IMG/VR virus record: IMGVR_UViG_2630968543_000006
DNA from: a virus
Taxonomy: Duplodnaviria > Heunggongvirae > Uroviricota > Caudoviricetes
Direction: 5' to 3' (one strand)
Length of the DNA stretch: 33,147 nt
Each line of letters opens with the position of its first letter. Position 1 is the stretch's first letter. This document shows positions 1-33,147 of this stretch, one piece after another. The position numbers were made by a program, and so were the translations under genes. Below the pieces are notes generated by a model, which saw nothing but the letters and a program-made list of their open reading frames with translations, had not been told where the DNA came from and ran no database searches.

Positions 1-90
1 TCACTCTGCCAGATGGCGCAATGCCATCTGGTATCACTTAAAGGTATTAAAAACAACTTTTTGTCTTTTTACCTTCCCGTTTCGCTCAAG
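1..90. other. Host chromosomal flank, B' side of lambda attB
   Basis: Minus strand immediately after the att core reads CTTGAGCGAAACGGGAAGG, which I recall as the E. coli attB B' arm. Perfect 9-bp hairpin ccagatggc/gccatctgg at 9-31. Confidence 0.6.
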
Positions 91-250
91 TTAGTATAAA
101 AAAGCTGAACGCGAAACATTAAAAACCATTAATATCAATGTGTTACAATATCTTTAGTCTAAAAAATAGACTACATGATGCTACAAAACACAACATATCC
201 AGTCACTATGAATCAACTACTTAGATAGTATTAGTGACCTGAGACAGAGC
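91..250 (-). other. attR: attR (P-O-B'): 15-bp core at 91-105 plus lambda-like P arm with Int arm-type sites
   Basis: Plus 91-105 ttagtataaaaaagc is the reverse complement of the lambda core GCTTTTTTATACTAA. The adjacent 106-250 resembles the lambda attP P arm, with arm-type motifs agtcactatg (about 201-210) and tattagtgacctg (about 229-241). Confidence 0.85.
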
Positions 251-291
251 ATTAGCGCAAGGTGATTTTTGTCTTCTTGCGCTAATTTTTT
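251..291 (+). terminator. sib: sib/tI-like hairpin terminator (retroregulator of int) on the strand of leftward int transcription
   Basis: Perfect inverted repeat attagcgcaag (251-261) / cttgcgctaat (276-286) with a 14-nt loop, running into a T-tract through 291. Position just beyond the P arm matches lambda sib/tI. Confidence 0.55.
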
Positions 292-638
292 GTTATCAAA
301 CATGTCGCACTCCAGAGAAGCACAAAGCCTTGCAATCCAGTGCAAAGATTTGTGTGCCTCAGTTTTGTCTAAGTGTTCTACTGAAAACATAGTAAAATCG
401 GCAACAGCTGGAAATCATTCAATACTCGCACTATCGAAAGTTCACCAGCCAACCGCAGCACGTTCTTGCATACAACGTGCTGCGGCATAATCCCAATGAT
501 TACTCCCTGACAGGGTTCGTAGGCCACTCAATATCAGGTGCAGTTGATGTATCAACACGGTTCAGCAACACCCGATACTTCTTCCAGGCTTCCAGCAACG
601 AGGTTTCTTCCTCCGTTGCATATACAGCTCACCTTTTT

Positions 639-938
639 TCACCCACGATTAACCAACAGCCAGACCAGCAGACACGCCACCACCGGCACAGAAAAATCCA
701 TCAGGCTTGCCACATCCCAAGCTCGCGGATCAAAACCGCCCCACCACGGCATATTCATTCGCTTGCCATGCCCGAACATTTCAATCCAGCGATATTCTGC
801 CTGGGTATGTTCACGCGCAATGAAGAACGTACAACCGGCTATCGCTCCGTAAGCCCAGTTTCCGGTAAAAAGACCAACCAGTACCTGCGCAGCCACAGCA
901 CAAAGTGCATGAAGGAAAGGTGTTATATCCATTTTCAT
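639..938 (-). CDS. Small inner-membrane protein of unknown function (about 3 predicted TM helices), last gene before attR
   Basis: Track ORF 639..947 (TTG at 947; ATG codons at 938 and 932). Hydrophobic segments FLHALCAVAAQVLVGLF, WAYGAIAGCTFFIA and FSVPVVACLLVWLLV. No family recognised. Confidence 0.55.
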   Translation of the reverse strand: MKMDITPFLHALCAVAAQVLVGLFTGNWAYGAIAGCTFFIAREHTQAEYRWIEMFGHGKRMNMPWWGGFDPRAWDVASLMDFSVPVVACLLVWLLVNRG

Positions 939-944
939 CCTACC

Positions 945-968
945 CAATAAAACGGGGCGCTCGGCCCC
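945..968 (-). terminator. Weak hairpin plus T-tract after the fibre-like gene
   Basis: 5-bp GC stem ggggc (954-958) / gcccc (964-968) followed on the minus strand by TTTTATT. Short stem, so low confidence. Confidence 0.3.
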
Positions 969-974
969 TTAATA

Positions 975-2015
975 TTATTTAGACGCAAGCGCCGCCTCAA
1001 TTGCAGATAATCTTTGTCTTAATTCTGCGTTTTCTTCTTCCAGTGCTGTTATTCTGTCGTCTGACTCTCTGGCTACCTGAACAAGCAAGCCAGTAACACC
1101 AGAATAATCTACTGTGTAATAACGTTCACCTTCTTCACCTTCCGATCCGCTCGCACCGTCCTGATATTTCATTGCGGAACCTACAACTTCTGGGATTGCT
1201 TCCAGAGCTTCCTGTGCAATGACACCAGCATAGGGCATACCGTTTTCTTTAAGCGTGTATGTATAGCCGTTCATTTTACGGATGCGGTCGGTTGCATTAT
1301 CGATCACCTGAATGTTGTCTTTCAGATCCCGGTCGGAATGCTGGTTAAATGCGGTGGCATGACATGCACCATTAACGCTTAACATATAGGTGTTATCGGT
1401 ATTTTTCTGCGCATAGAACATATAAGCGCCACCATCAACACCGACTTCATAAACAACAGGACGGCTGGAGTTGCCCCACAATTGAGCAGTAACACCAGCA
1501 TAAGCGGTTCCCTGTGTGTTTAATGTCATGGTTGACCCATGATTGGCATATTTGATCTGTAATGTGTCGGTGTAATCAAATTTAATAAGCGCGTTACTTC
1601 CACGCTTGCTGTATGACATAAGGCAGTTACCCATTTTGAGGTATCCGCTGTCACCGGGAAAAATCATCGTACCGCCATAAAGGTTGGTAAAGTCCCAGCA
1701 AATGTTTGTCCCGTTATCGTTCAGGTTAAGGCGCGCCATTGCGTTACCTGGACTGTCTATCCATTTTTTGAGGTATAGTTCGCAATACGCATCCTCAACA
1801 CCTGCCGTCCTGTGAGTTGAGCGGAGTTTTCTCCCAAATATAGCTCCGCTAGTTGGCAATACCTGCTGATACCATGAAACAGACCAGTCACCAACGATTT
1901 CATCTTTGCTGTCTACATATAATTTTGTTGCGTAGCTTCCTTGATCGTTTTTTAATTTGCTAACGTCGGATTTTAGCGTTTTGATGTCATCAGGAATTAC
2001 TGTCGATGTAGCCAT
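975..2015 (-). CDS. Tail fibre / tailspike-like protein with C-terminal intramolecular chaperone (peptidase S74-like) domain
   Basis: 346-aa ORF with GAGGA ribosome-binding site upstream. C-terminal motifs NQHSDRDLKDNIQVIDNA...YAGVIAQEALEAIPEVV and a terminal coiled-coil (ITALEEENAELRQRLSAIEAALASK) are typical of the endosialidase-chaperone domain. N-terminal ~220 aa unrecognised. Confidence 0.6.
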   Translation of the reverse strand: MATSTVIPDDIKTLKSDVSKLKNDQGSYATKLYVDSKDEIVGDWSVSWYQQVLPTSGAIFGRKLRSTHRTAGVEDAYCELYLKKWIDSPGNAMARLNLNDNGTNICWDFTNLYGGTMIFPGDSGYLKMGNCLMSYSKRGSNALIKFDYTDTLQIKYANHGSTMTLNTQGTAYAGVTAQLWGNSSRPVVYEVGVDGGAYMFYAQKNTDNTYMLSVNGACHATAFNQHSDRDLKDNIQVIDNATDRIRKMNGYTYTLKENGMPYAGVIAQEALEAIPEVVGSAMKYQDGASGSEGEEGERYYTVDYSGVTGLLVQVARESDDRITALEEENAELRQRLSAIEAALASK

Positions 2016-2024
2016 TTTTCTTCC

Positions 2025-2306
2025 TCACATCCAGCCACGAAGTTGATGCTCAACAGCAACCACGTATTCATCGAATAATGACGATATTTGCGAATCATTA
2101 ATGATGCGCACGTTTACAAAATATCCGTCTTCCTTAACACATACCGGTTCGCCATCTTCAGTCAGTTCTCCGGTTTCTTTGTACACATTACCTATCACGT
2201 CAATAAGAATATCATCCTGCATCGACTCGTCATCATAATAGCCAATGCTCTCCATAAAGGCCGAAAAGTCGACCCTGTCTGCAAATTTGAGTGTTAAATC
2301 TTTCAT
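2025..2306 (-). CDS. Acidic 93-aa hypothetical protein in the tfa position (possible fibre assembly/chaperone factor)
   Basis: Start overlaps the stf stop (ATGA), implying translational coupling. Acidic composition. No similarity to lambda Tfa recognised. Confidence 0.5.
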   Translation of the reverse strand: MKDLTLKFADRVDFSAFMESIGYYDDESMQDDILIDVIGNVYKETGELTEDGEPVCVKEDGYFVNVRIINDSQISSLFDEYVVAVEHQLRGWM

Positions 2307-4702
2307 TTAATACTCTCCCCCATTTGCGCATCAGTTAATTCTTTATGCCAGAGACGAAGATTTCTCAAATGGCCGAATAGATGACGAGTTCCCGATGTGG
2401 CTTGACCTCCAATTCGAATAAAGGTCCGTGTTTTTACGCCCGTCCACTCCGTTTTCATAGTTTTAGTAGCCTCACCGTTAGAAACTACTCGTTTAGTACC
2501 ATCAGAATAAATATTAAAACCACCAATGAATTTTCGAACATCAGTTCGACCAGCAAACACACTAGAAACGTAAGTACTTGTCGACGCTTTATAAGTTTGC
2601 ATATAAAGCTGACCGTAATATTTCTCAGTTGTGTTAAAAGCGTATGTAATTGACTCAATAGGTGGCACACCAGAAAAATCAAAAATACGCGGTGCTACAT
2701 TAGGAGGAATATCGCCCCAATTTCTATTAACCTCGACAAGACACGTAAGCGGTCTATTATAGATATTATTTTCAGTTGGGATCGTCACCATATCACTGGA
2801 GCGGGTTGCGGGTGCAGTTGTCGTAATAACAAAAGATGAAGCACATCCGCCGTTTTCAAATTGTGGTGTTGCAAGGTAAATATAATCTCCCGCTTCAGTT
2901 ATACCACCTTTTTTCGGCGCATACTGAATCATTGCGCCAATTAAGGTTTCACCTTCAACAGCTTCTATAGTTGCCTCATAGAAAATCCACCCTGTAACCG
3001 GATCTTTAGTTGCAGTAGCTGCTATTCTATTGGCTGCTCCGCCAGTTTTTTCTATTATCAGAGTTCCGAAAGTTAAATAAGCATCTCCTAAAAATGTATA
3101 AACCGACCCATCGTATTTTTCAAAACGCAAACGACAACGAAGACCATCAGGAGCTTTAACCCTGCATGAAACAGTGCAATACTTATTATCGCCACTAACA
3201 TCAATCCCCCGGGATGCACTGCATGTATGCAGACTAAGTGCAGATGATTGTCCTGTCATATTATCTTTTGTTCGCATTTTGGCATATGAAAAACCAAATT
3301 CATCAACACCATTATTAGTTTTATCGATATTGCTGGTACTCGTCCATTCAGCGGGAGTATTGGATTTAACAAAATAGTTAGTGCGCTGTCCTTCAATCAA
3401 TAAACCTTCTTTTTCAAATCGTGGCTCATCAATTTTAGCAACACTAAATACGCCTGATTTATTGATATATGTGGCAGTTGATGCGCGTTTAAACTTAACA
3501 ACCTTGTCGCCAGGCATCGTTATTTCATCATCACCAATAACAATTTTTTTATATGACGGCGAAAAGCCCGTAATCATATCCAGTGAATCGTTAAACGGTA
3601 TCCACACATCAGGCAGTGGCTGTAAGACATATTTATACGGCTCTGCTGCCTGACTTGCATACTCTCTGGCTGCGTCTTCACTTGCTTTAGCTGCTGTCTG
3701 GCTTGCTGCCGATGCTTTCGCCGAGTTCGCCGCTGCAGTCTCGCTTGTCTTTGCATTGGTTTCACTGGTTTTTGCCGCTTTTTGACTGTTGGCTGATGCA
3801 GTGGCAGAAGCAGCCGCCGCGCTTGCAGAACCAGCTGCCGCGCTCTCGCTTTGGGCTGCTGCAACCTGGCTGTTTTTCGCCGCAGTTTCGCTGGCTTTGG
3901 CATTCGTTTCGCTGGTCTTCGCTGCCGTCTGGCTGGACTTTGCGTTAGTTTCACTCGTCTTCGCAGCTTTCTGGCTGTTAGCCGCAGCAGTTGCTGATCC
4001 AGCTGCTGAAGTCGCAGAACCGGCTGCCGCGCTCTCGCTTTGGGCTGCTGCAACCTGGCTGTTTTTTGCCGCAGTTTCACTGGCTTTGGCATTCGTTTCG
4101 CTGGTTTTCGCTGCCGTCTGGCTGGACTTTGCGTTGGTTTCGCTCGTCTTTGCGGCTGTCTCGCTATTTTTCGCGTTGGTTTCTGATTTTTTGGCTGCTG
4201 TCGCGGAGTTTTCTGATGCAGTCTGTGAGGTCGCTGCCGCCTGTGCACTATTAGCTGCATTCGTTTCTGAGGTTTTCGCCGCGTTCTTCGATGATGCCGC
4301 TGCAGTTTCGGATTTCTTTGCCGCCGCTGCGCTCTGAGAGGCGGCTTCGGCGTTGCGTGCCGCTTCTTCCACCATTTCCTCAAAACGACGCAATGCCTCC
4401 GGCATGACATCATCTTCCGTCATGGCACCGAGAAAATCATTCAGCGTACCTGGTCTGGAACCTTCATAGACGGTAATGGTTCCGGCATGTGAAGGCGGAA
4501 AACCTTCAACAAGCAGGATAACGCTGTACTGGCCATACTCAACATCCATGCTGTAACGCCCGGCTTCATCCGGATTTTCAGAGGCCACCGTGTTCACCAG
4601 TACCGTGGTGCTGTTACGCTTTGCCTTCAGTTGAATAGTGCAGTTCTGTATTGGTTTTCCCGCACCATCTTTCAGCACACCTGAGATTTTTACTGCTGCC
4701 AT
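2303..4702 (-). CDS. stf: Side tail fibre protein Stf (lambda-like N-terminus, Ala/Ser/Thr-rich repeat shaft, non-lambda C-terminal receptor-binding region)
   Basis: N-terminus MAAVKISGVLKDGAGKPIQNCTIQLKAKRNSTTV...GRYSMDVEYGQYSVILLVEGFPPSHAGTITVYE is near-identical to lambda Stf. ATG at 4702 (track GTG at 4708). Internal AKTSETNAK repeats. C-terminal ~400 aa unlike lambda Stf as I recall it. Confidence 0.85.
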   Translation of the reverse strand: MAAVKISGVLKDGAGKPIQNCTIQLKAKRNSTTVLVNTVASENPDEAGRYSMDVEYGQYSVILLVEGFPPSHAGTITVYEGSRPGTLNDFLGAMTEDDVMPEALRRFEEMVEEAARNAEAASQSAAAAKKSETAAASSKNAAKTSETNAANSAQAAATSQTASENSATAAKKSETNAKNSETAAKTSETNAKSSQTAAKTSETNAKASETAAKNSQVAAAQSESAAAGSATSAAGSATAAANSQKAAKTSETNAKSSQTAAKTSETNAKASETAAKNSQVAAAQSESAAAGSASAAAASATASANSQKAAKTSETNAKTSETAAANSAKASAASQTAAKASEDAAREYASQAAEPYKYVLQPLPDVWIPFNDSLDMITGFSPSYKKIVIGDDEITMPGDKVVKFKRASTATYINKSGVFSVAKIDEPRFEKEGLLIEGQRTNYFVKSNTPAEWTSTSNIDKTNNGVDEFGFSYAKMRTKDNMTGQSSALSLHTCSASRGIDVSGDNKYCTVSCRVKAPDGLRCRLRFEKYDGSVYTFLGDAYLTFGTLIIEKTGGAANRIAATATKDPVTGWIFYEATIEAVEGETLIGAMIQYAPKKGGITEAGDYIYLATPQFENGGCASSFVITTTAPATRSSDMVTIPTENNIYNRPLTCLVEVNRNWGDIPPNVAPRIFDFSGVPPIESITYAFNTTEKYYGQLYMQTYKASTSTYVSSVFAGRTDVRKFIGGFNIYSDGTKRVVSNGEATKTMKTEWTGVKTRTFIRIGGQATSGTRHLFGHLRNLRLWHKELTDAQMGESIK
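3825..4202. repeat. Tandem direct duplication, 2 x 189 bp (63 codons), inside stf
   Basis: The block starting gcagaacc(a/g)gctgccgcgctctcgctttgggctgctgcaacctggctg occurs at 3825 and again at 4014, near-identical for about 135-150 bp. Shorter related repeats span about 3690-4330. Confidence 0.8.
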
Positions 4703-4712
4703 ATCCACTCCA

Positions 4713-5433: not shown

Positions 5434-8400
5434 TCAGCTGATACTGATGCCTGCGGTGGCTTTCTTCATCACCACAACCAGCAAATCGCTGATACTTGCT
5501 GTGGGATACCAGTCATTTACCAGCCATGCTGACACCGAAAACTCCAGCGTCATGTGACCGTGACCGGCAGGCATATCAATAACGCCACTGTAAATCAGCG
5601 TATTATCCAGCGCGGTACGGTTATAAATTTCAGCACCGTTTTTCCGCACTATCAGACGGCATGAGGAGTAAATATCAGTATGCTCTCTCTCATGTTTAGC
5701 GCCGCTGAATGCCACCGCCGGAATAACAATCTGCCGGTCAAACGGCTGATCGTCATAAATCCTGACGGTAATGGTCCCTGATGGCCACCGTTCCGGTGCA
5801 CGGGAGTCCCGGGGGAAAGCTTTGCCCACTGTTTTAACGAGATCGCCTTCAATCTGGTTCGCGGACAGTTTTCCCAGAACCCGGCAGTTCTCGTTAATCG
5901 TGACGTTGTTGAGCGTCCCGGAGTTCGCATTCACGTTACCGCTGATATCGGCATTTTTCGCCGTCAGCCGCCCGTCCGGTGTCAGGGAAAATGCCGGAGG
6001 ATTACCGCCGCTGGTAATGGTGGGAGCCGTCAGATATTTCAGGAACACTTCATTCATAAATATCTGATCGCCCTGACCAACAAACATCGGCTTTGTGTTG
6101 CCATTCGCAGGATTAACCATCGCAATCCTGTCCGCCGCCAGCAGCACCTGACTCTGCATGCCGTCAGGGGTGTTCTCAATACCGGCACCAATACCCGCGA
6201 TATAAAGGCGTCCGTCCTGCATCTGCTGCAGCTTCACAGCCCACATGCTGTTCAGGTTATTATTTGTATCAACCTGAACCTTCTGTATCTGCTGAATTGC
6301 CGCACTCTGGTCTTCCAGTTTCTTATTGACGGTCTGCGTGATTTCATTGCTGACATCCGTAATGGACGTCCTGATTTCAGCCAGGTCAGGCGCAAGCTGA
6401 CCGTTATCAATCTGCGTCCACAGCTCCTGAGCCAGATGGCTTTTCCCTATCTCGCCTTTGAAAAAATCCAGATAGCCGGATGCATCATCACTCGGCTGGC
6501 CAACAGCCTCCACAAATGCCGATTTGCCAACGGTGTTCACACTGCGGATGTAAAAATAATAATCATGGCCCGGTTTGATATTGATACTGGCAGCTATCCA
6601 GTACAGCGCCGTGCCAAGATAGCGGGCTGTGGTTTCAACCTGCCTGATATCCGCAATCCGCTTTTCCGAGAACCAGAACTCAAACTGTACCGTCGGATCA
6701 TAAACGGCAAGATGGGGCGTGGCGGTTATCTGAAAATAGCCCGGCGTCAGCTCAATCCGCGACGGCGCTGCCGGTGCGGCAATACGGAACGATACCGATG
6801 CCGGATCGCCCTGCTGCCCCCAGGCATTTGCCGCCCGGACTGTCAGCCTGTAGTTTCCCAGCGCCAGTTGCGTGAAGCGGTATGTGGTTTCCGTCGTCCG
6901 GGCCGTGCTGACCAGCCGCTCACTGCCGTCATCCGCTGCCACGGTCAGGCGAAGCAGGAAGCTCACGCCCTTCACCACCTTCGGTGTGTCCCATCGCGCC
7001 AGCACCTGATATTCCCCGCTGTCTGCAGTGACTTCTGCGGTCAGGTGCTGCACCGCTGGCGGCGTGACACCATTCACCGTGCCACTCTGTTCGCCGTCAA
7101 AGTGCGCCCCGTTATCCACGATGGCCTCTTTTTCCGGCACATGCTGCACGGCGGTGATGGCATACGTGCCGTCGTCGTTCTCACGGATACTCACGCAGCG
7201 GAACAGTCGCTGGCGCAGCGTCGGCAGCTTCAGCCCCCATACGCTGTATTCAGCAACACCGTCAGGAACACGGCTCACTTTTACCTTCACGCCGTCGGTG
7301 ACGGACTGAACCTCCACGCTGACCGGACTCCCCTGCCCGTCAACCAGGCTTATCAGCGTGGTGCCGGAAGATGGCAGCGTGATTTCACGGTCGAGCGTCA
7401 GCGTCCGGGTCTGGCTGTTTACCGCCAGCACGCGCCCGCCGGTGCTGATACCGGCATAGTCATCATCGCAGATTTCAATGACATCGCCCGGTACATGGCG
7501 AAGCCCTTCGGCACCCACGCTGAAGTCCACGGTCTGCGTTTCCAGCAGTTCTGTTTTAATCAGCCACAGCCCGGCGCGGTGTGCCTGCCCCCGGCTGGTA
7601 CAGCCAAAAGCATCCATCTTCGTGACGTTACGACCGTAACGGGCAATGGCCTGCGTGTCCTCCACAAGCTCTGTCGCCGTCTCCCAGCCGTTGTTCGGGT
7701 CAATCCAGTTCACCTCAACGGCATTATGGCGGTCCTTCAGGGCGCTGAAGCTGTAGCGGAACGGCGCGCCATCATCCGACATCACCACATTACTGCGGTT
7801 ATAGGTCCACACCTTATCTGATGGCCGGTCCTGCACGAACGTCAGCGTCTGCCCGTTCCATACCGGCATACAGCGCATCGCCGAGCAGAAATCACTGAGC
7901 ACATCCCACGCCTTGCGCTGTGTGGTCAGGTACGCATTACAGGTGATGCGCGGCTCCGTGCCGCCAAAGCCGTCCGGCACTGACTGGTCGCAGTACTGGC
8001 CGATGACATACAGCGCCCATTTATCCACATCCGCCGCACCAAGACGTTTCCCCATGCCGTAGCGCGGATGGGTCAGCATATCCCACAGACACCAGGCCAT
8101 GTTGTTGCTGTATGCTGGCTTAAACGTTCCGTCCCAGATACCGCTGTATTGCCGCGTCTGCGGGTTATAGTTCGACGGCACCTGCAGAATGCGCCCGCGC
8201 AGATGATAATTACGGCTCACCTGCTGGCTGCCGAACTGCTCCGAATCCACCTGCACGCCGACCAGTGCCGTGTTCGGGTAGCACTGTTTCACATCGATGA
8301 TTTCGGTGTATGACGACCAGAGCGTTTTGTTCTGCAGCTGGTCTGTGGTGCTGTCCGGCGTCATCCTGCGCATCCGTATATTGAACGGGCGCGGCGGCAG

Positions 8401-8913
8401 GTTACCCACCACCACCGAGGCCAGATACTGCGAGGTGGTTTTGCCCTTAATGGTGATGTCTTTTTCCGTCACCCAGCCACCATTACGCTGTATCTGAACC
8501 AGCAGACGGACTTCCGACGGATTCCTGTCACCCTTTGAGGTGGTTTCCACCAGTGCCTGTACACCGAAGGTAAAGCGCAGACGGTCGATGTTTGCCGACG
8601 TAATGGTGCGGGTGATCGGCGTGTCATATTTCACTTCCGTACCCAGCACCGTCTCGGAGCCGGAGGATTCAAATCCCTCCGGCGGTGACTGCTCCTGCTC
8701 ACCTGCCCGGAACACCACCGTGACGCCGGATATATTGGTATTCCCCTCACTGTCCAGCACCGGCGTACTGTTCAGCAGCACGCTTTTTAATCCATCCACC
8801 GGACCTTCAATCGGCCCTTCGCTGATGGCATCAATCACACTCAGCAGCTGCGTGGATTTCAGGTTGTCCTTCGCTTCGCGCGGGGTATGCCCCTTACTGC
8901 TGCCTTTACCCAT
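5434..8913 (-). CDS. J: Tail tip / host specificity protein J
   Basis: 1159 aa; N-terminus [44 protein letters not shown] matches lambda gpJ over long stretches; lambda position. Confidence 0.95.
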
Positions 8914-8973
8914 TCGTCATGCTCCATAAACGATAAAACCGCCCGGAGGCGGTTTCACATAAAACGTTTTTCA

Positions 8974-9616
8974 TCAGCGACCAATCACCACAACCTGACC
9001 ACCATCACCTTCATCTGCTGTGCTGATCTCCTGAGATACCACACGTGATCCCACGCGCATTTCACCGTACAGAACGGGCAGAACATTGCCCTGGGCAACC
9101 ATATTATCCAGTGAAGAAAAATAGGTGTTCTGTTTGCCGTTATCCGTTGTCTGTGTGCGGGGGGGTTTTGGGTTTAGGGGCCAGCATCTGTGCAACACCG
9201 CCAAGCGTCATACTGGCACCGAGAGAAAACAGCAGATTACTCGCCATAATTCCTACCCCCGGCATCCATATAGCAACCGCCATAACAGCCGCCCCCAGCA
9301 CAGCCTGAAACACACCGCCACTTTTGGCTCCTGCCAGACGCGGCACGATATGGATCACAGCACCATTTGCCAGCGGTTCATTCAGACGGGCTGATAATTC
9401 CGTTTCACCTGTATCACGCCCGGCAATGCGTACCTGATACCAGCCGTCGCTCAGCTTCTGACGAAACGCCGGGATCTGCATGGCCAGCGCCCGGATGGCT
9501 TCGGCCCCCGTTTTCACACGCAGATCGATGCGGCGGACAAATCGTTGTAAATCCCCGTAAAGGCAGATGCGTGCCATGCCTGGTGACGCCAGAGGGAGTG
9601 TGTGCGTCGCTGCCAT
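8974..9616 (-). pseudogene. I: Tail assembly protein I, interrupted by a +1 frameshift at a G7/C7 homopolymer (pseudogene or sequencing error)
   Basis: The N-terminal part (track 9140..9616, MAATHTLPLASPGMARICLYGDLQRF...) and the C-terminal part (8974..9204, ...TQTTDNGKQNTYFSSLDNMVAQGNVLPVLYGEMRVGS...) both match lambda gpI but lie in different frames. They overlap at the run of 7 G at 9159-9165; removing one G joins them as ...APKPKTPRTQTTDNGKQ... Confidence 0.8.
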
Positions 9617-11290: not shown

Positions 11291-13842
11291 CGTCCACCTC
11301 CGGAGAACAGGCCACCATCACGCATCTGTGTCTGAATTTCATCACGGGCACCCTTGCGGGCCATGTCATACACTGCCTTCATCATCTGTGGACCTGGCAG
11401 ACCATTCGTACCGTCGTTCTGAATCACCACGTGATTGTTCTGATTAAAATTAATGCCTTCAGCCCGCCGCATCTGCGCCGGACTTCCGGCACCGCCCACA
11501 TAACCACCTTCCGCATAGCCCCGCATCAGGCGGTACAGGTTGCCGACACCAATCCGGCTGGTAGCCTCCTTCGTGAAGACAAATTCACCACGATGAACAA
11601 TCCCCGCTGGCTCATATTTGCCGCCGGTTCCCGTAAATCCTCCGGTCGCAAAATGGAATTTCGCCGCAGCTGCCTGAATGGCTGTACCGCCTGACGCGGA
11701 TTCGCCGCCACCAACAGCACCGCCAATGGCGCTGCCGATACTCCCGACAATCCCCACCATTGCCTGCTTAAGCAGAATTTCTGTCATCATGGACAGCACG
11801 GAACGGGTGAAGCTGCGCCAGTTCTGCTCACTGCCGGTCAGCATCGCCGCCATATTCTGCGCAATACCATCAAAGGTCTGCGTGGCTGCACTTTTAACCT
11901 GCAACATACTGTCCGTGGCACTCTCTTTCCACTCGCTCCAGCCGGACCTGAGGCCTGCCATCCAGCTCCCGCGAAGCAGGTCTTCAGCCGCCCAGGTCTT
12001 TTTCTGCTCTGACATGACGTTATTCAGCGCCAGAGGATTATCGCCATACTGTTCCTTCAGGCGCTGTTCCGTGGCTTCCCGTTCTGCCTGCCGGTCAGTC
12101 AGCCCCCGGCTTTTCGCATCAATAGCGGCCCGTTTTGCCCGTTGCTGCTGTGCGAATTTATCCGCTTGCTGCGCCAGCGCGTTCAGGCGCTCCTGATACG
12201 TGACCTTATCGCCAAGTGCAGCCAGCTGGCGTTTGTACTCCAGCGTCTCATCTTTATGCGCCAGCAGGGATTTCTCCTGTGCGGACAGCTGGCGACGTTG
12301 TGCCGCCTCCTCCAGTACCGCGAACTGACTTTCTGCCTTCCACAAATCCCGGCGCTGCTGGCTGATTTTCTCATTCGCTCCGGCATGCTTCTCCAGCGTC
12401 CGGAGTTCTGCCTGAAGCGTCAGCAGGGCAGCATGAGCACTGTCTTCCTGACGATCGCCCGCAGACACCTTCACGCCGGACGGCTTTTTCTGCGTCGACT
12501 CATAATCCTTTTTCGCCGCCGCCATCAGCGTGTTGTAATCCGCCTGCAGGATTTTCCCGTCTTTCAGTGCCTTGTTCAGTTCTTCCTGACGGGCGGTATA
12601 TTTCTCCAGCGGCGTCTGCAGCCGTTCGTAAGCCTTCTGCGCCTCTTCGGTATATTTCAGCCGTGACGCTTCGGTATCGCTCTGCTGCTGCGCATTTTTG
12701 TCCTGTTGAGTCTGCTGCTCAGCCTTCTTTCGGGCGGCTTCAAGCGCAAGACGGGCCTTTTCACGATCATCCCAGTAACGCGCCCGCGCTTCATCGTTAA
12801 CAAAATAATCATCCTTGCGCAGATTCCAGATGTCGTCTGCTTTCTTAAACGCAGCCTCTGCCTTAATCAGCATCTCCTGCGCGGTATCAGGACGACCAAT
12901 ATCCAGCACCGCATCCCACATGGATTTGAATGCCCGCGCTGTCCTGTCTGCCCAGGTCTCCAGCGTGCCCATGTTCTCTTTCAGGCGGCGGGTCTGGTCA
13001 TCAAACCCTTTCGTTGCGGCCTCGTTCGCCGCCTGCAATGCCCCGGCTTCATCGCCGGAACGCTGCAACTGAGCAACATACGCAATCTGCTCCGCCGTCA
13101 CGTTATGGAACTGGCGTGCCATCGCCGTCAGCCCCGACGTCGGGTCTGTGGTCAGCTTCCCGAAGGCTTCAGCGACCTTGTCCACCTCCACGCCGGATGC
13201 AGAGGAGAAACGCGCCACACTCTGGCTGATGGACGCAATCTGAGCCTCACCGCTTACCCCCGCCTTAACCAGTGCGCTGAGTGACTCGCTGGTCTGGTTA
13301 AACGTCAGCCCTGCCGCCTGCCCGGCTCTGGACAGGACCAGCATACGATCTGCCGTCAGTCCCGCCTGATTGCCGGAAAGGACCAGCGTTTTGTTGAAAT
13401 CGGACAGGGTTGAGTTGCCCTGATACCAGGCATACGCCAGCGCACCGGTCGCCACCGCCAGCGAGGTGGCCCCCACCATCGGCAGGGTGATCGCACCGGC
13501 AAGCCCCCTGAACATGGGGATCATCCCGCCGAAGGAGTCCTTAACCTGACCACCCTGTTGCAGCAGGATCAGCCACGGACTTTGCCCGCCTGCAAGCTGC
13601 GTGGCCACGTCGGTGAACTGTGCAGGCAGCATACGCATGGCGGCTTTATACTGCCCGACGGAAATCCCCGCTTTCTGTGCAGCCAGCGCCTGTCGGCTCA
13701 GCGACTGTTCAACGACTGCCGCTGTTTTTTTCGCATCACTTTCCGTACCGGAAAAATGACGCCTGACTCTGGCCATCTGCTCGTCAAATCTGGCCGCATC
13801 CAGACTCAAATCAACGACCAGATCGCCTACCGGTTCAGCCAT
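11287..13842 (-). CDS. H: Tail tape measure protein H
   Basis: 851 aa (lambda gpH is 853 by recall). Extended coiled-coil region and Gly-rich C-terminus; lambda position. Confidence 0.95.
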   Translation of the reverse strand: MAEPVGDLVVDLSLDAARFDEQMARVRRHFSGTESDAKKTAAVVEQSLSRQALAAQKAGISVGQYKAAMRMLPAQFTDVATQLAGGQSPWLILLQQGGQVKDSFGGMIPMFRGLAGAITLPMVGATSLAVATGALAYAWYQGNSTLSDFNKTLVLSGNQAGLTADRMLVLSRAGQAAGLTFNQTSESLSALVKAGVSGEAQIASISQSVARFSSASGVEVDKVAEAFGKLTTDPTSGLTAMARQFHNVTAEQIAYVAQLQRSGDEAGALQAANEAATKGFDDQTRRLKENMGTLETWADRTARAFKSMWDAVLDIGRPDTAQEMLIKAEAAFKKADDIWNLRKDDYFVNDEARARYWDDREKARLALEAARKKAEQQTQQDKNAQQQSDTEASRLKYTEEAQKAYERLQTPLEKYTARQEELNKALKDGKILQADYNTLMAAAKKDYESTQKKPSGVKVSAGDRQEDSAHAALLTLQAELRTLEKHAGANEKISQQRRDLWKAESQFAVLEEAAQRRQLSAQEKSLLAHKDETLEYKRQLAALGDKVTYQERLNALAQQADKFAQQQRAKRAAIDAKSRGLTDRQAEREATEQRLKEQYGDNPLALNNVMSEQKKTWAAEDLLRGSWMAGLRSGWSEWKESATDSMLQVKSAATQTFDGIAQNMAAMLTGSEQNWRSFTRSVLSMMTEILLKQAMVGIVGSIGSAIGGAVGGGESASGGTAIQAAAAKFHFATGGFTGTGGKYEPAGIVHRGEFVFTKEATSRIGVGNLYRLMRGYAEGGYVGGAGSPAQMRRAEGINFNQNNHVVIQNDGTNGLPGPQMMKAVYDMARKGARDEIQTQMRDGGLFSGGGR

Positions 13843-14673
13843 ACCGGACTCCTCCTGCGATCCCTTCTGATACTGTCATCAGCATTACGTCATCCTCCGT
13901 CATGTCCGCCACATCCGGGGAAGCGGGGATAACTTCATTCCCGTCCGGGCCAAAACGAACGCCTCCGGCAAGCCCTGCCGCTTTCTGCATCAGCACATCA
14001 TCTTCAGGCTCTTCGTCAGCCTCGCGCCGGTTCAGCAGACTGAAATCCAGCGGATGCATATCCGGATCGCTGAAAAACAGGCTGAGTACGGTGTACGTCA
14101 GCCCGGAAAAGTGCATATCCAGCAGAACATCATGAAAATAATGGGTACTGTAAAAGCGGTGCCAGTCGGCATACTCCGTGGATGACATCCCGGCAAGCAT
14201 GGCGCGCCAGTCGGGTCGCCCCATCTCACGCGCCAGTTTCAGGGCAAAACTCAGCTCACCGTCGAACACTTTCCCGCAGAAACAGGCTCTGCAGGCCCGG
14301 CGTCCTCTGCCTGTTCAGGGGCATTATTCACCACAAACTCAGACATTCCGGACAGACGTAACACCACGTTTTCAGCCTGAGCAATTGCCTCCGTGGGCCA
14401 GGCGGTAAGCACTTCCTGCTCAATCTGCGTAATGGCTTCATTCATGGACGGCAGCTTTGTCTTCTGTGGATGGTTATGCCACAGAGACATCGCCACCAGA
14501 AACGCCCCGCCTCTGATAAGCGCCTCTACAGACACCTGCAGGTTGCCACTGGATTCAGCCTTTTTTTCCTGCTCTTTCAACCAGGCAAGATGCTCAATAC
14601 GCTGCAGGGCTGACAGTTCAGAAAGCGTGACGGTCACGCCGTTATGTTCAAATGATTCGGTTTTCAGGAACAT
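13835..14673 (-). CDS. T: G-T fusion made by programmed -1 ribosomal frameshift (T frame 13835-14275)
   Basis: The -1 frame after the slippery heptamer encodes VFDGELSFALKLAREMGRPDWRAMLAGMSSTEYADWHRF..., matching lambda gpT. The T frame has no start codon of its own in the lambda arrangement. Confidence 0.85.
14251..14673 (-). CDS. G: Tail assembly chaperone G
   Basis: 140 aa, MFLKTESFEHNGVTVTLSELSALQRIEHLAWLKEQ... matches lambda gpG; ends ...VSAGKCSTVS just after the slippery site. Confidence 0.95.
   Translation of the reverse strand: MFLKTESFEHNGVTVTLSELSALQRIEHLAWLKEQEKKAESSGNLQVSVEALIRGGAFLVAMSLWHNHPQKTKLPSMNEAITQIEQEVLTAWPTEAIAQAENVVLRLSGMSEFVVNNAPEQAEDAGPAEPVSAGKCSTVS
14269..14275 (-). 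promoter_or_regulatory. Slippery heptamer G GGA AAG for the G-T -1 frameshift
   Basis: Plus 14269-14275 ctttccc is GGGAAAG on the minus strand, in the G reading frame (..GCG GGA AAG TGT..), 6 codons before the G stop. Confidence 0.85.
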
Positions 14674-14688
14674 CGCTGACTCTCCGGA

Positions 14689-15429
14689 TTAACTGTCGGT
14701 GACGGTGATTTCTGCAACCGCAGCAAGTTCACCATTACCGGATACAACCGGAATGTTGACCTTGCCTGCAGCAACGCCGTTCACGGTGATGGTCATACCA
14801 CTGACCGACACGGTGGCTTTTGTTTTATCCGCAGACACCGCACGAAAGCTCTTGTCGGTTACGCCCTCCGGCTGGAAGGCCACGGTCAGCGTGGTGCTCT
14901 GCCCTTTCACCACCGAGGTGCTGGCAGGCGTCACGGTCATGCCGGTTGCCGCTGTTACCGTGCTGCGATCTTCTGCCATCGACGGACGGCCCACATTGGT
15001 GACTTTCACCGTGCGGGTGATCACTTCCTTCGCCGTCACCGCCTTACCGATACTGCTGACCCAGCCACGGAACACATCGACCGTGCCGTTCGGGAAGCGG
15101 ATTTTATAGGCACGGGTATCGCCTTCATTAAACCACGCCAGCAGCGCCTGCTGCCCCTGCTCTCCGGGCATCCACGCCAGCGTGAAGCTGGTATCTCCGG
15201 CAGATTTCTGCCCCTGCCCGGTCGCAGTCCAGTCTGCATCTTCATCATCGAGATAGCTGTCGTCATAGGACTCAGCGGTCAGTTCGCCGGGCGTCAGGTC
15301 TTTAACTTTTGCCAGACGCGACCAGTCAACGTCTGAAAGCGGATTCGCATAAGGGTCACCGCTCCCCTTATAAACCCACAGGGTGGTCCCGGCACCTTTC
15401 ACCGGCATTGTAGGATTTGGTACAGGCAT
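14689..15429 (-). CDS. V: Major tail tube protein V (with C-terminal Ig-like domain)
   Basis: ATG at 15429 gives [22 protein letters not shown]..., as in lambda gpV (246 aa). The track ORF extends 10 codons further upstream. Confidence 0.93.
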
Positions 15430-15436
15430 AGCGTCC

Positions 15437-15832
15437 TCACATTTCATAGGTAATGACATAAGTCATATCGGCTGAACTCCACAGGCCCGCATCATCGTCG
15501 CGCCGGTAGTCATAGCCACTGACCACCATACTGGTGATCAAATCTGACAGTGCCGGGATATCGCTCATCACCGGATAAATCCGGGACTCCATCCACGCAT
15601 CCAGCTCTGAATCCGGCACCTGAGCAGGCAGGAAAATTTCGATATGCAGCTCCGCCTGCCAGGTATCGCTGTCCAGCTCTTCGCCCGTGTATTCAGCGCC
15701 GGTGAGATAAACGGCAACTGCCGGAAAATCCGCCTCATCAAAAACAGCGGGGCGACCATCAAAAAACGTCGCCCCGGTGTCATGCTTCTCCAGTGCATCC
15801 AGTACGGCTGCACGGAGTTCAGTATGTTTCAT
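15437..15832 (-). CDS. U: Tail terminator protein U
   Basis: 131 aa, [43 protein letters not shown]... matches lambda gpU. Confidence 0.93.
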
Positions 15833-24776: not shown

Positions 24777-25137
24777 ACATCCCGGTTTCTTCCACCATCG
24801 CACCGGAAAAGCGACTATGAGGGTAACCCTGCGTCTGTCAGCACAGTAAAACCCGGTGTGCATCGTTTTTGATTATTCCCGCACACTCACGCAGAAGGAA
24901 TTCCCCGTCGGGCTACGGTCATGGTTAATGCGGGAATACGGCGACGATACAGCGCAGCTAAAAGGGTAATGGACAGATAGAGCGGTTTATTTCATTCCAC
25001 AGGATTCTGAGTGCCCCCCCCTCCTCCAATAGGCTGAGCATCCACCTATATAGTTTTAATTTTCATCAATCCATTTAACTATCGTTTAATTGTTGTCACA
25101 TAGGATTCTGCCGTTTTTAACAATGCAGGATAATAAG

Positions 25138-25431
25138 ATGAAAAAAATGTTGTTTTCTGCCGCTCTGGCAATGCTTATTACAGGATGTGCTCAACAGACG
25201 TTTACTGTTGGAAACAAACCGACAGCAGTAACACCAAAGGAAACCATCACCCATCATTTCTTCGTTTCGGGAATTGGACAGGAGAAAACTGTTGATGCAG
25301 CCAAAATTTGTGGCGGCGCAGAAAATGTTGTTAAAACAGAAACCCAGCAAACATTCGTAAATGGATTTCTCGGTTTTATTACTTTAGGCATTTATACTCC
25401 GCTGGAAGCGCGTGTGTATTGCTCACAATAA
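25138..25431 (+). CDS. bor: Bor lipoprotein (serum-resistance lipoprotein, Iss homologue)
   Basis: ATG at 25138 after AGGA; MKKMLFSAALAMLITGC (lipobox) AQQTFTV...ETITHHFFVSGIGQ...TPLEARVYCSQ, 97 aa, close to lambda Bor. Oriented opposite to the late genes, as in lambda. Confidence 0.93.
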   Translation: MKKMLFSAALAMLITGCAQQTFTVGNKPTAVTPKETITHHFFVSGIGQEKTVDAAKICGGAENVVKTETQQTFVNGFLGFITLGIYTPLEARVYCSQ

Positions 25432-26778: not shown

Positions 26779-27205
26779 AAGCTGTGTGACGAAGTAACCA
26801 CTCTTAACAGCATAACCAATTTTTTACGTACGTAAACCACTAAATGATATTTGCGAGAATGCTACCGAGTATTGAAAACACCACTACAAATACATAAGCA
26901 AATCTCAACAAATAACCAACAAATAATTTCCAGCGTTATTTTTAGCCGATTTAAATTGAACCTTCAAATTATAGAGCACTTATAAATAACAGCCATTAAT
27001 ATAAATTGGCTAATAGATTTATTTTTATTCAGCCAAGAGCCATGAATAGGATTCGATAGAAAAAAGTTCAGATAAAAATAGAGATCTACTTCACAAATCA
27101 AACGAGAAACCAAAACTTACATCTTGAAATAATCACATTGATTAGATGAATATTTATCGCGCAGTGACATCATTTTTTAATAATAGTTCAAAAAAAGGGC
27201 TCACG

Positions 27206-28288
27206 ATGAAAAAATTAACAGTGGCAATTTCTGCTGTAGCTGCATCAGTACTGATGGCGATGTCTGCTCAGGCAGCTGAAATTTATAATAAAGACAGTAA
27301 CAAGCTGGATCTGTACGGGAAAGTTAATGCTAAGCACTACTTCTCCTCTAATGATGCAGATGATGGTGATACTACTTATGCCCGTCTTGGCTTCAAAGGT
27401 GAAACCCAAATCAACGATCAACTGACTGGTTTCGGTCAGTGGGAATATGAATTCAAAGGCAACCGCGCTGAATCTCAAGGTTCTTCCAAAGACAAAACCC
27501 GTCTTGCATTTGCAGGCCTGAAATTTGGTGATTACGGCTCAATCGATTACGGCCGTAACTACGGTGTAGCATACGACATCGGTGCGTGGACTGACGTTCT
27601 GCCAGAATTCGGTGGTGATACCTGGACCCAAACAGATGTGTTCATGACTGGTCGCACTACTGGTGTTGCAACTTATCGTAACAACGACTTCTTTGGTCTG
27701 GTCGATGGCCTGAACTTTGCTGCTCAGTATCAGGGTAAAAATGACCGCACTGACGTAACTGAAGCCAATGGTGATGGTTTCGGTTTCTCCACTACTTATG
27801 AGTATGAAGGATTCGGCGTGGGTGCAACCTATGCTAAATCAGATCGCACTGACGGTCAGGTCGCCTATGGTAAGAGCAAATTCAATGCCTCCGGCAAAAA
27901 TGCGGAAGTATGGGCTGCAGGCCTGAAATATGATGCGAACAATATCTATCTGGCTACCACATATTCTGAAACTCAGAATATGACCGTTTTTGGTAATAAC
28001 CATATTGCAAACAAAGCACAAAACTTTGAAGCAGTAGCACAATATCAGTTTGACTTCGGTCTGCGCCCATCTGTTGCTTACCTTCAGTCAAAAGGTAAAG
28101 ACCTTGGTGTTCATGGTGACCGAGACTTAGTCAAGTATGTCGATGTCGGTGCTACTTACTACTTTAATAAAAACATGTCCACTTTTGTTGATTACAAAAT
28201 CAACTTAATTGACGATAGTAAGTTTACCAAAACAGCTGATATTGATACCGACGACATCGTCGCTGTAGGTCTGGTTTACCAGTTCTAA
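27206..28288 (+). CDS. nmpC: General outer-membrane porin, NmpC/Lc type (OmpC/OmpF/PhoE family)
   Basis: ATG at 27206 gives signal peptide [23 protein letters not shown] then [24 protein letters not shown]... and C-terminal ...VAVGLVYQF (360 aa). Opposite orientation to the late genes, between Q and S, as in DLP12. Confidence 0.9.
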
Positions 28289-31395: not shown

Positions 31396-31890
31396 TCATT
31401 TCCAATTGCAAGACTGTGAAATTTTTTCCACAACCTTATCAATCTCAGACAAGTCAAACTCAACTACTTGCATAGTTGATCCATAAGGTTCAAACCCAAA
31501 AATAGCTTTTTTATGCTTAGCCAAGGTCTTTATAAATTGTATTGGTTGTGGAGCAAATGCAGAATCACCGCCTTCCCCACCTCCCCAAGCACTCTTGACC
31601 GGCTTTCCGCCATCTAACCGCACTGTAATTCTTGGGTTGTCCGAACCCATATAATCATTGAATGATAAATAGGCATCTGTTTTGTTATCACTACAACGCA
31701 ACACCAGTGAAGTTGCACGATCAGTACCTGCTTTGTTATATGAATCTGGTGATAAATTAAGAGCCACAAAGTCAGTCTGGTCAGTCATTTTATTTATCTC
31801 AGACTTTGTTATCCACGACCCTAACTTCTCTACACCAGCATTTGCAGTAAACGAGGCACTTATGACAAAGGCTATAATAAATTTTCTCAT
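31396..31890 (-). CDS. Secreted (periplasmic) protein of unknown function, likely an accessory (moron) gene
   Basis: 164 aa with signal peptide MRKFIIAFVISASFTANA. Has its own terminator and is separated from downstream genes by the ORF-poor stretch. No family recognised. Confidence 0.6.
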   Translation of the reverse strand: MRKFIIAFVISASFTANAGVEKLGSWITKSEINKMTDQTDFVALNLSPDSYNKAGTDRATSLVLRCSDNKTDAYLSFNDYMGSDNPRITVRLDGGKPVKSAWGGGEGGDSAFAPQPIQFIKTLAKHKKAIFGFEPYGSTMQVVEFDLSEIDKVVEKISQSCNWK

Positions 31891-32210: not shown

Positions 32211-32217
32211 ACAGTTG

Positions 32218-33147
32218 TGAACCGCCCCGGGTTTCCTGGAGAGTATTTTATCTGTGAACTCAGGCTGCCAGATCATCGTTTCCGATGGAAGCATAATAAG
32301 CTTTTTCTGCTTCTGCCGGAGGAGTATGGCCCAGCCTTTCCAGCAATCGTCGATTGTTATACCAGTCCACCCACGTGAGTGTGGCCAGTTCCACTTCTGC
32401 ACGGTTTTTCCAGCTCTTACGGTGTATTACCTCCGCTTTGTAAAGACCATTGATGCTCTCCGCCATCGCGTTGTCATACGAGTCGCCTGTACTTCCTGTT
32501 GATGCCAGTAATCCGGCTTCCTTAAGCCGCTGTGTGTAGGCCAGCGATACATACTGAGAACCTTTATCACTGTGATGGACCGTGCCGGACGGTCGACGGG
32601 CCCATAACGCCTGCTCCAGTGCATCCAGCACGAATGTCGTCTCCATGGACGATGAGACCCGCCACCCCACAATGTATCCGGCAAACACATCAATGATGAA
32701 CGCCACATAGACGAAGCCCTGCCATGTGCTGACGTAAGTAAAATCAGCCACCCACAGCTGGTCAGGTCGTTCTGCCACGAACTGACGGTTTACGCGGTCG
32801 CCTGCGGCAACGGCTTTCCGGCTGATGGTCGTACGGACCTTTTTACCCCGGAGAACACCGGCAAGTCCCATAACCGCCATGAGACGTGCCACAGTGCATC
32901 TGGCCACTCTGATACCTTCCCGTAACAACTGACGCCAGACTTTACGCACACCGTATACCTTGTGATTTTCATCGTATACGCGCTGTATCTCTTTCTTCAG
33001 CCAGTCATCGCGCTGCGCACGGGCACTGCGTTTATCCGGATGATGTCGCTGTTGCTGACAGTGGTAATACGTTGACGGGGCAATATGCAGTTCGCTGCAT
33101 AGCGGTCCGACCCCGTACTGCTCACGCAGCTTATCCAGCAGTGGCAT
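32218..33147 (-). mobile_element. IS3-family insertion sequence (IS629/IS1203-like), terminal inverted-repeat end at 32218; extends beyond the window
   Basis: IS3-type end tgaaccgccccgggtttcctggagag beginning with TG at 32218, about 40 bp beyond the orfB stop. Element identity is from memory. Confidence 0.8.
32260..33147 (-). CDS. IS3-family transposase OrfB (DDE integrase catalytic domain); start is at the window edge and may lie upstream
   Basis: 295 aa. MPLLDKLREQYGVGPLCSELHIAPSTYYH...LWVADFTYVSTWQGFVYVAFIIDVFAGYIVGW...HHSDKGSQYVS...DNAMAESINGLYKAE carries the D, D...E hallmarks of IS3-family OrfB. Confidence 0.9.
   Translation of the reverse strand: MPLLDKLREQYGVGPLCSELHIAPSTYYHCQQQRHHPDKRSARAQRDDWLKKEIQRVYDENHKVYGVRKVWRQLLREGIRVARCTVARLMAVMGLAGVLRGKKVRTTISRKAVAAGDRVNRQFVAERPDQLWVADFTYVSTWQGFVYVAFIIDVFAGYIVGWRVSSSMETTFVLDALEQALWARRPSGTVHHSDKGSQYVSLAYTQRLKEAGLLASTGSTGDSYDNAMAESINGLYKAEVIHRKSWKNRAEVELATLTWVDWYNNRRLLERLGHTPPAEAEKAYYASIGNDDLAA

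Follow-up and report, generated by a model that had tools for sequence, protein, structure and literature searches.

A one-base insertion in a homopolymer splits tail gene I of a lambda-like Escherichia coli prophage

Introduction

The stretch of viral DNA analysed here (IMG/VR record IMGVR_UViG_2630968543_000006, 33,147 nucleotides, hereafter the window) contains a homologue of the lambda tail assembly gene I that cannot be read through from start to stop. The gene spans positions 8974-9616 on the minus strand, and its reading frame is broken at a run of seven G residues. Is this break a heritable mutation, an error of sequencing or assembly, or an arrangement from which a working tail protein can still be made? 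We address this by translating the gene in its intact and interrupted forms, by comparing the length of the run in related prophages, and by looking for the interrupted form in other assemblies.

The lesion in gene I

On the plus strand, positions 9149-9175 read tctgtgtgc-GGGGGGG-ttttgggttt, and the run is thus C7 on the coding strand (Table 1). The mutant 0 frame reads AAA ACC CCC CCG CAC ACA GAC AAC GGA TAA on the coding strand. If one C is removed it continues as ACC CCC CGC ACA CAG..., and a G6 run encodes Thr-Pro-Arg. ORF A, the 5' part of the gene, begins with MAATHTLPLASPGMARICLYGDLQRF, like lambda I, and ends in ...APKPKTPPHTDNG (longer form ...MLAPKPKTPPHTDNG), followed by a TAA stop at 9140-9142. 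It contains native residues 1-152 and then six out-of-frame residues (PHTDNG). Residues 14-97 are the ubiquitin-like Lambda_tail_I domain (PF06805, E = 7e-24, 84.5 bits against a cut-off of 23.8), with a Gly/Ala-rich hydrophobic segment after it. The 3' part now lies in the +1 frame, within ORF B (8974-9204), which reads ...PKPPRTQTTDNGKQNTYFSSLDNM...VVVIGR (fuller: ...NPKPPRTQTTDNGKQNTYFSSLDNMVAQGNVLPVLYGEMRVGSRVVSQEISTADEGDGGQVVVIGR). Downstream of the run, this part encodes residues 153-213 (RTQTTDNGKQ...VVVIGR), equivalent to residues 163-223 of lambda gpI. We rejected separate translation of ORF B, since the one candidate start codon it has, a TTG at 9204, is not preceded by a Shine-Dalgarno-like sequence. 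A Pfam search of ORF B matched no domain.

Table 1. Coordinates of gene I, its neighbours and the terminal insertion element in the window.
Feature	Position	Strand	Basis
Gene J, central tail fibre, 1159 aa, intact	5434..8913	-	Translation, relatives' annotation
Gene I 3' part, now in the +1 frame (ORF B = 8974-9204)	8974..9158	-	Translation
ORF A, 5' part of gene I, 158 aa	9140..9616	-	Translation and Pfam
G7 run (C7 on the coding strand)	9159..9165	-	One-base insertion site relative to the G6 of relatives
[quoted passage not shown]
End of IS3-family element (transposase ORF 32260-33147)	32217-33147	- (transposase ORF)	rve and HTH_21 domains

A first-pass annotation of this DNA had proposed that the gpI homologue is split by a single extra base, and the translations agree: the two halves lie in two frames that overlap at the G7 run. 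Deletion of one G restores, as that annotation also claimed, a continuous protein (a 642-nt ORF, 213 aa), whose alignment to the 223-aa lambda gpI covers both proteins fully at 79% identity (E = 8e-129). PDB chains of lambda gpI (8IYK, 8IYL, 8K35, 8XCG, 9E7M) match the repaired protein over its whole length as well. The two genes share the order L-K-I-J, the 103-nt overlap with K, an identical N-terminus and an identical stretch of 59 residues at the C-terminus. They differ in that the window gene is interrupted after codon 152 and that its hydrophobic linker has 10 residues fewer, the sole gap in the alignment. At the site of the run, lambda has ACT CCC CGT (C4), whereas the intact form of the window allele has ACC CCC CGC (C6). 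The sequence of the gpI C-terminal domain (TAPI-C, lambda residues ~134-223) is present in the window, yet not in frame with the ubiquitin-like domain. Judged from its translation, the gene belongs to the Lambda_tail_I family by descent and is, as it stands, a pseudogene.

The annotated start of gene I is inconsistent across databases. RefSeq entries for close relatives (L001 20001-20543; L075 11543-12085) use an internal GTG that overlaps the K stop, giving 180 aa, while other database records use Met14 and give 200 aa; the start used in lambda and in the window gives 223 and 213 aa, respectively. Three singleton proteins of 335-337 aa (P0003, P0004, P0058) combine NLPC_P60 and Lambda_tail_I domains and resemble K-I fusions, presumably produced by frameshifts in the 103-nt K/I overlap of other genomes. 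Fusions of I to K or J are mentioned by Iyer et al. (PMC1779556).

Prophage context

The window holds the late half of a lambda-like prophage in minus-strand orientation. The side tail fibre genes are followed by lom, J, I, K, L, M, H, T, G, V, U and Z, and then by head genes, terminase, lysis genes, Q and the nin region. Gene I sits between K and J in the tail module, as expected for gpI. The 3' end of K overlaps the start of I by exactly as much as in lambda (NC_001416: K 14276-14875, I 14773-15444). By analogy with lambda, J would be the partner that normally receives the gpI C-terminus missing here (PMC10721106).

The closest relatives are prophages of the E. coli strains 582 (98.9% identity over 29.6 kb) and MS 196-1 (99.6-100% identity over 32.2 kb). 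Each of these prophages occupies the lambda attachment site, flanked by ybhB (bio side) and ybhC. Base 1 of the window aligns in both with the base right after ybhB, placing this prophage at the lambda attachment site as well. Within window positions 1-1000, the first ~950 bases hold remnants only; the relatives' annotation lists there a tail fibre assembly pseudogene, marked as partial, and small hypothetical ORFs.

How complete is the rest of the prophage? The ORFs of J, K, L, M, T, G, U, Z, the portal, the terminase and others have the lengths of the intact genes annotated in the relatives, and H differs from the relatives by an in-frame deletion of 6 nt. The first-pass view that the other structural genes are intact therefore holds for the head and tail genes by their lengths. 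The further description of the prophage as otherwise complete was not borne out. The tail-fibre assembly gene is a remnant in the window and in the relatives alike. Compared with MS 196-1, the ren/P junction carries an additional IS3-family element, which lies ~10 nt within the 3' end of the replication gene P and interrupts the early region. The window stops inside this element, as short-read contigs do, and the immunity, recombination and integration regions lie beyond it. MS 196-1 itself carries IS3-family copies in a tail fibre gene and in rusA, and none at ren/P.

Run length in related prophages

The full 643-nt gene has matches in 4,271 complete E. coli genome records, and megablast found no gap-free match to the G7 gene in any of them (0 of 4,271). 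The best three complete-genome matches reached 642/643, differing at the run alone (verified for strain 582). Since whole-gene megablast cannot count run lengths, we replaced it with 80- and 81-mer queries, for which the top identity band consists of exact matches, and with pattern scans allowing G5-G9. No match to the G7 81-mer at 99% identity or above was found in 20,395 records from 5,426 complete E. coli genomes; the G6 80-mer was matched at this identity in 392 complete E. coli records.

An open pattern scan (G5-G9 between fixed flanks) recovered 60 IMG/VR loci, 2 GTDB species representatives and 46 metagenome contigs. All of them spanned 29 nt, the length that a G6 run gives, and a check with a shorter-flank regular expression recovered 60, 2 and 45 of these loci, again all G6. 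Runs of G5, G7, G8 and G9 were absent from the 107-108 loci of these scans, which permitted G5-G9. In the phage-genome collection, none of the 133 matching records was gap-free and the closest relative (642/643 nt) has G6. The G6 run is kept over ~41 sampled I haplotypes, the most divergent of which differ at 42 of the 643 positions, and lambda itself has a C4 run only. A search for homologous proteins was dominated by full-length forms of 213 aa and 200 aa. By contig counts, too, the same protein allele with its frame intact greatly outnumbers the truncated form, the 213-aa form being on 129 contigs and the 200-aa form on at least 998.

The first-pass annotation had allowed that the two-ORF arrangement might be conserved among related prophages and had suggested comparing their run lengths. 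With G6 everywhere scanned, by the 81/80-mers and by the open scans, the two-ORF arrangement is not conserved: it was seen in 0 of more than 500 relatives. An intact gene in a single ORF is the rule, and the two-ORF layout is neither conserved nor programmed.

The G7 allele in other assemblies

The G7 run does recur outside the window. The exact 158-aa product of ORF A is found on 16 other contigs by one index and on 10 by another, with the nr accessions EAB6864521.1, HAI3619685.1, MSF53072.1 and MSG05946.1. Its sources are five NCBI drafts (GCA_012858965.1, GCA_009682365.1, GCA_004259125.1, GCA_009682035.1, GCA_003358355.1), four Logan assemblies of separate sequencing runs (ERR4035820, SRR19432074, ERR15823824, ERR10177164) and one ENA metagenome. 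All ten of the loci that we fetched for this product carry G7 (10/10). Five fetched G7 loci are identical to the window over 0.5-1.5 kb, and GCA_012858965.1 differs from it at 1 of 6,477 bases. The longest contig recorded with the 158-aa product is 24.8 kb, less than the window, which must therefore be a further, separate assembly.

The G7 copies of I share the haplotype of the window, with the exception of one SNP (9103) in a single contig (L003). As these contigs were found by an exact-protein look-up that fixes residues 1-158, the shared haplotype is partly built in. It extends, however, over the 166 nt 3' of the premature stop, which lie outside the constraint of the look-up and vary strongly from one G6 copy to another. 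The protein look-up would miss G7 on any other protein haplotype, and the open scans found none either. Some of the G7 samples may be re-sequenced isolates of one clone. The surroundings of the gene are less uniform, as two contigs (L003 and L004) carry a different tape measure gene (1077 aa) and diverge by ~3% in K and L. We considered independent recurrence of G7 at a hypermutable tract and set it aside: the flanks differ, but gene I is one haplotype bar one SNP. A single origin of G7 followed by recombination is the simpler reading, although recurrence may have gone unseen among contigs picked by exact protein sequence.

One G7 draft (L005; GCA_009682035.1, contig WKWK01000145.1, 2,695 nt) contains the 3' end of a G7 copy of I followed immediately by a diverged G6 copy (97% identical). 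These tandem copies come either from a real duplication or from two co-resident prophages joined into a chimera by the assembly, and they show that a G7 genome can also hold I sequence with an intact frame.

Origin of the G7 run

The lesion is present in the window, absent from the scanned relatives and found again in other assemblies. It is very probably a genuine, heritable insertion from G6 to G7 in a lambda-like E. coli prophage, part of ordinary prophage decay. The extra base most likely arose through strand slippage during DNA replication. It would shift the frame after codon 152 and remove the last 61 residues, leaving a product with the N-terminal ubiquitin-like domain and the hydrophobic helices. 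The residues lost would be those that, in lambda, plug the lumen, provide the gpJ-anchoring beta strands and hold on to the C-terminus of the tape measure protein. The G7 allele would then be one real mutation that was inherited and passed through some recombination. It is rare, and it represents neither programmed recoding nor a gene split that relatives share.

It is quite unlikely that the isolate truly has G6 and that the extra G is a homopolymer miscall, introduced by sequencing or assembly. Runs of G or C are classic sites of indel errors, no complete E. coli genome searched has G7, and the window ends in an IS element like a draft and may not have been polished with a second technology. 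Yet the sequencing error that the first-pass annotation had left open is weakened by the 10-16 other public contigs that encode the identical truncated product; these come from varied projects and pipelines, and those fetched all have G7 on the same haplotype. The run is also the only one out of step in the window: 44 of the 45 homopolymers of at least six bases, a C8 and another C7 among them, agree in length with MS 196-1, the closest complete genome, and the sole deviating one is the G run in I. Likewise, over ~29-32 kb of comparison with 582 and MS 196-1, this run is the only frame-changing indel, with no second frame-breaking indel in ~32 kb; the others are multiples of three or compensated pairs within diverged stretches. 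We thus rejected a generally error-prone assembly on the homopolymer census and the indel list. The G7 run is neither private to one assembly nor accompanied by other homopolymer discrepancies. If the run is real, it could in principle be a reversible on/off switch for prophage tail production (a phase-variable contingency locus), given that homopolymer tracts gain and lose units, that G7 could revert to G6 by the same slippage, and that the G7 allele occurs in more than one prophage background. This is extremely unlikely for a tract of only 6-7 bases that is found in two lengths, with G5, G8 and G9 absent from the 107-108 loci of the permissive scans, and whose longer form was found on one I haplotype only, via the truncated-protein look-up. 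The G6 tract merely encodes Thr-Pro-Arg, and lambda manages with C4. Nor do strains vary in tract length as those of a contingency locus would, the G5-G9 scans having returned G6 only.

A G7 run might also be real without being null, if a +1 slip of the ribosome or slippage of RNA polymerase yielded enough gpI for some infectious particles; we regard this as unlikely. A peptidyl-tRNA-Pro on ACC-CCC-CCG could slip from CCC to the overlapping CCC, and the +1 product would be identical to the wild type (...KTPRTQ...; junction peptide ...KTPRTQTTDNGK). The need for gpI is small, at three copies per virion. The sequence CC[C/U]-[C/U] is described as especially prone to +1 slippage; in E. coli the rate reaches ~1% where shifting is most frequent, which is at the second codon (PMC4519876). 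That G7 lies beside one tape measure gene in the window and another in L003 and L004 would also mean that the allele survived recombination. Against such a rescue, the arrangement is shared by none of the relatives scanned, and the phage-genome collection holds no G7 record, its closest entry having G6. Codon 152 is an internal position, at which less slippage would be expected than at codon 2 (PMC4519876). A stimulator of the prfB type is absent: reading the sequence upstream of the shift site (GCCCCTAAACCCAAAA), we saw no Shine-Dalgarno-like element resembling GGAGG, and the next 0-frame codon, CCG, is neither a stop nor obviously rare, with the 0-frame stop lying five codons past it. Vertical inheritance and recombination between prophages would be enough to explain the persistence of the allele. 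The site does resemble known +1 frameshifting at CCC-C proline codons (involving tRNA-Pro, m1G37/TrmD and EF-P) in that CCC-C stands in the mutant 0 frame and the wild-type protein would be recovered by a +1 slip, but that process is a translation error of at most about 1% and not a device of gene expression (PMC4519876). Among the features of programmed frameshifting, slippery re-pairing is present, as it would be for any C7 in this register; conservation and a stimulator are not seen. Some +1 leak at ACC-CCC-CCG is plausible from the sequence, whereas programmed recoding is not plausible. It is very unlikely that low-level +1 or RNA polymerase slippage has kept the G7 allele alive and that its presence in several strains reflects spread as live phage. 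If true, however, this would be a natural case of a structural phage gene kept alive by +1 frameshifting at a proline codon.

For comparison, the window also contains a second pair of overlapping tail-module ORFs joined at a slippery sequence. The heptamer GGGAAAG, the canonical lambda slippery sequence for the programmed -1 G/GT frameshift, lies at 14269-14275 on the minus strand, exactly where ORF G (14251-14673) meets ORF T (13835-14269), and the programmed -1 frameshift of this tail chaperone pair appears intact in the window. The split of I is unlike this pair in two respects. The same G and T ORFs are annotated in both close relatives, while I is split in no scanned relative; and G/GT uses a -1 shift, while the I split requires +1 and has no recognisable stimulator.

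Predicted consequences for the tail tip

What would a heritable insertion at this position do to gpI? The N-terminal domain of gpI is the ubiquitin-like beta-grasp domain of Iyer et al. (PMC1779556). Residues 135-223 of lambda gpI (134-222 in Ur-lambda) form a trimer in the lumen of the tail tip. This trimer is a tripod that holds up the C-terminal coiled coil of the tape measure protein, and each gpI, acting as a plug, is tied to gpJ via three beta-sheet augmentations (PMC10721106, PMC12617516). The plug consists of residues 159-175, and after binding to LamB the protein is ordered only from residue 167 onward (PMC11101478). In the window, residue 152, the counterpart of lambda residue 162, is the last one before the frameshift. 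By this alignment, most of the plug and all gpJ-anchoring strands (lambda 163-223) would be out of frame, and the truncated product would keep only parts that are unresolved, or transiently ordered, in the virion. We infer that the prophage would be unable, or nearly so, to build functional tail tips with the gpI that it encodes itself. Complementation in trans could come from another lambdoid prophage in the same cell, given that complete E. coli genomes with this gene have a median of 2 copies and up to 7.

The side tail fibre gene stf of lambda is dispensable for plaque formation. It offers the closest parallel, as laboratory 'wild type' lambda has lost its side tail fibres by a well-known frameshift in stf (cited in PMC10721106). 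Both are frameshifts that put a lambdoid tail gene out of action and have been passed on by descent. Unlike the side tail fibres, gpI is by structure integral to the tail tip, and a lesion in I should damage the phage far more.

Significance

Homopolymer frameshifts are a standard route of prophage decay. A frameshift of this type in a prophage tail gene is nothing new in kind, the truncated protein is already in the databases, and the G7 allele raises no new biological question. There are, however, practical consequences. When prophage viability is scored, tail-tip gene I should here be counted as frameshifted. The 158-aa 'tail assembly protein' entries (such as EAB6864521.1 and HAI3619685.1) are to be read as truncation products of this allele and not as a short isoform. 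The break also coincides with the plug and gpJ anchor of the recent lambda tail structures, and the allele thus naturally separates the ubiquitin-like N-terminus from the C-terminus that is incorporated into the virion. This could help tests of the roles of the gpI N-terminal part and of the K peptidase.

Other features of the window

The spacer between I and J (8914-8973, minus strand) contains a GC-rich hairpin, AAACCGCCTCCGGGCGGTTTT. The same hairpin occurs in lambda (L012 2446-2505) as AAACCGCCTGCGGGCGGTTTT, differing only in the loop. We rejected it as a terminator that would add polarity, because a simple terminator scan made no call and the hairpin is present in lambda. In the side tail fibre gene (2303-4708), a direct repeat lies within 3731-4165 on the minus strand (3731-3976 versus 3920-4165, ~85% identical); at the protein level it corresponds to AAKTSETNAK-like motifs reiterated within the N-terminal part. 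The prophage also carries three cargo genes, encoding an iss/bor-like lipoprotein (25090-25431, plus strand), an OmpC/NmpC-like porin (27146-28288, plus strand) and a VasI/TagO-like secreted protein (31396-31890, minus strand; Pfam VasI, E = 3e-6).
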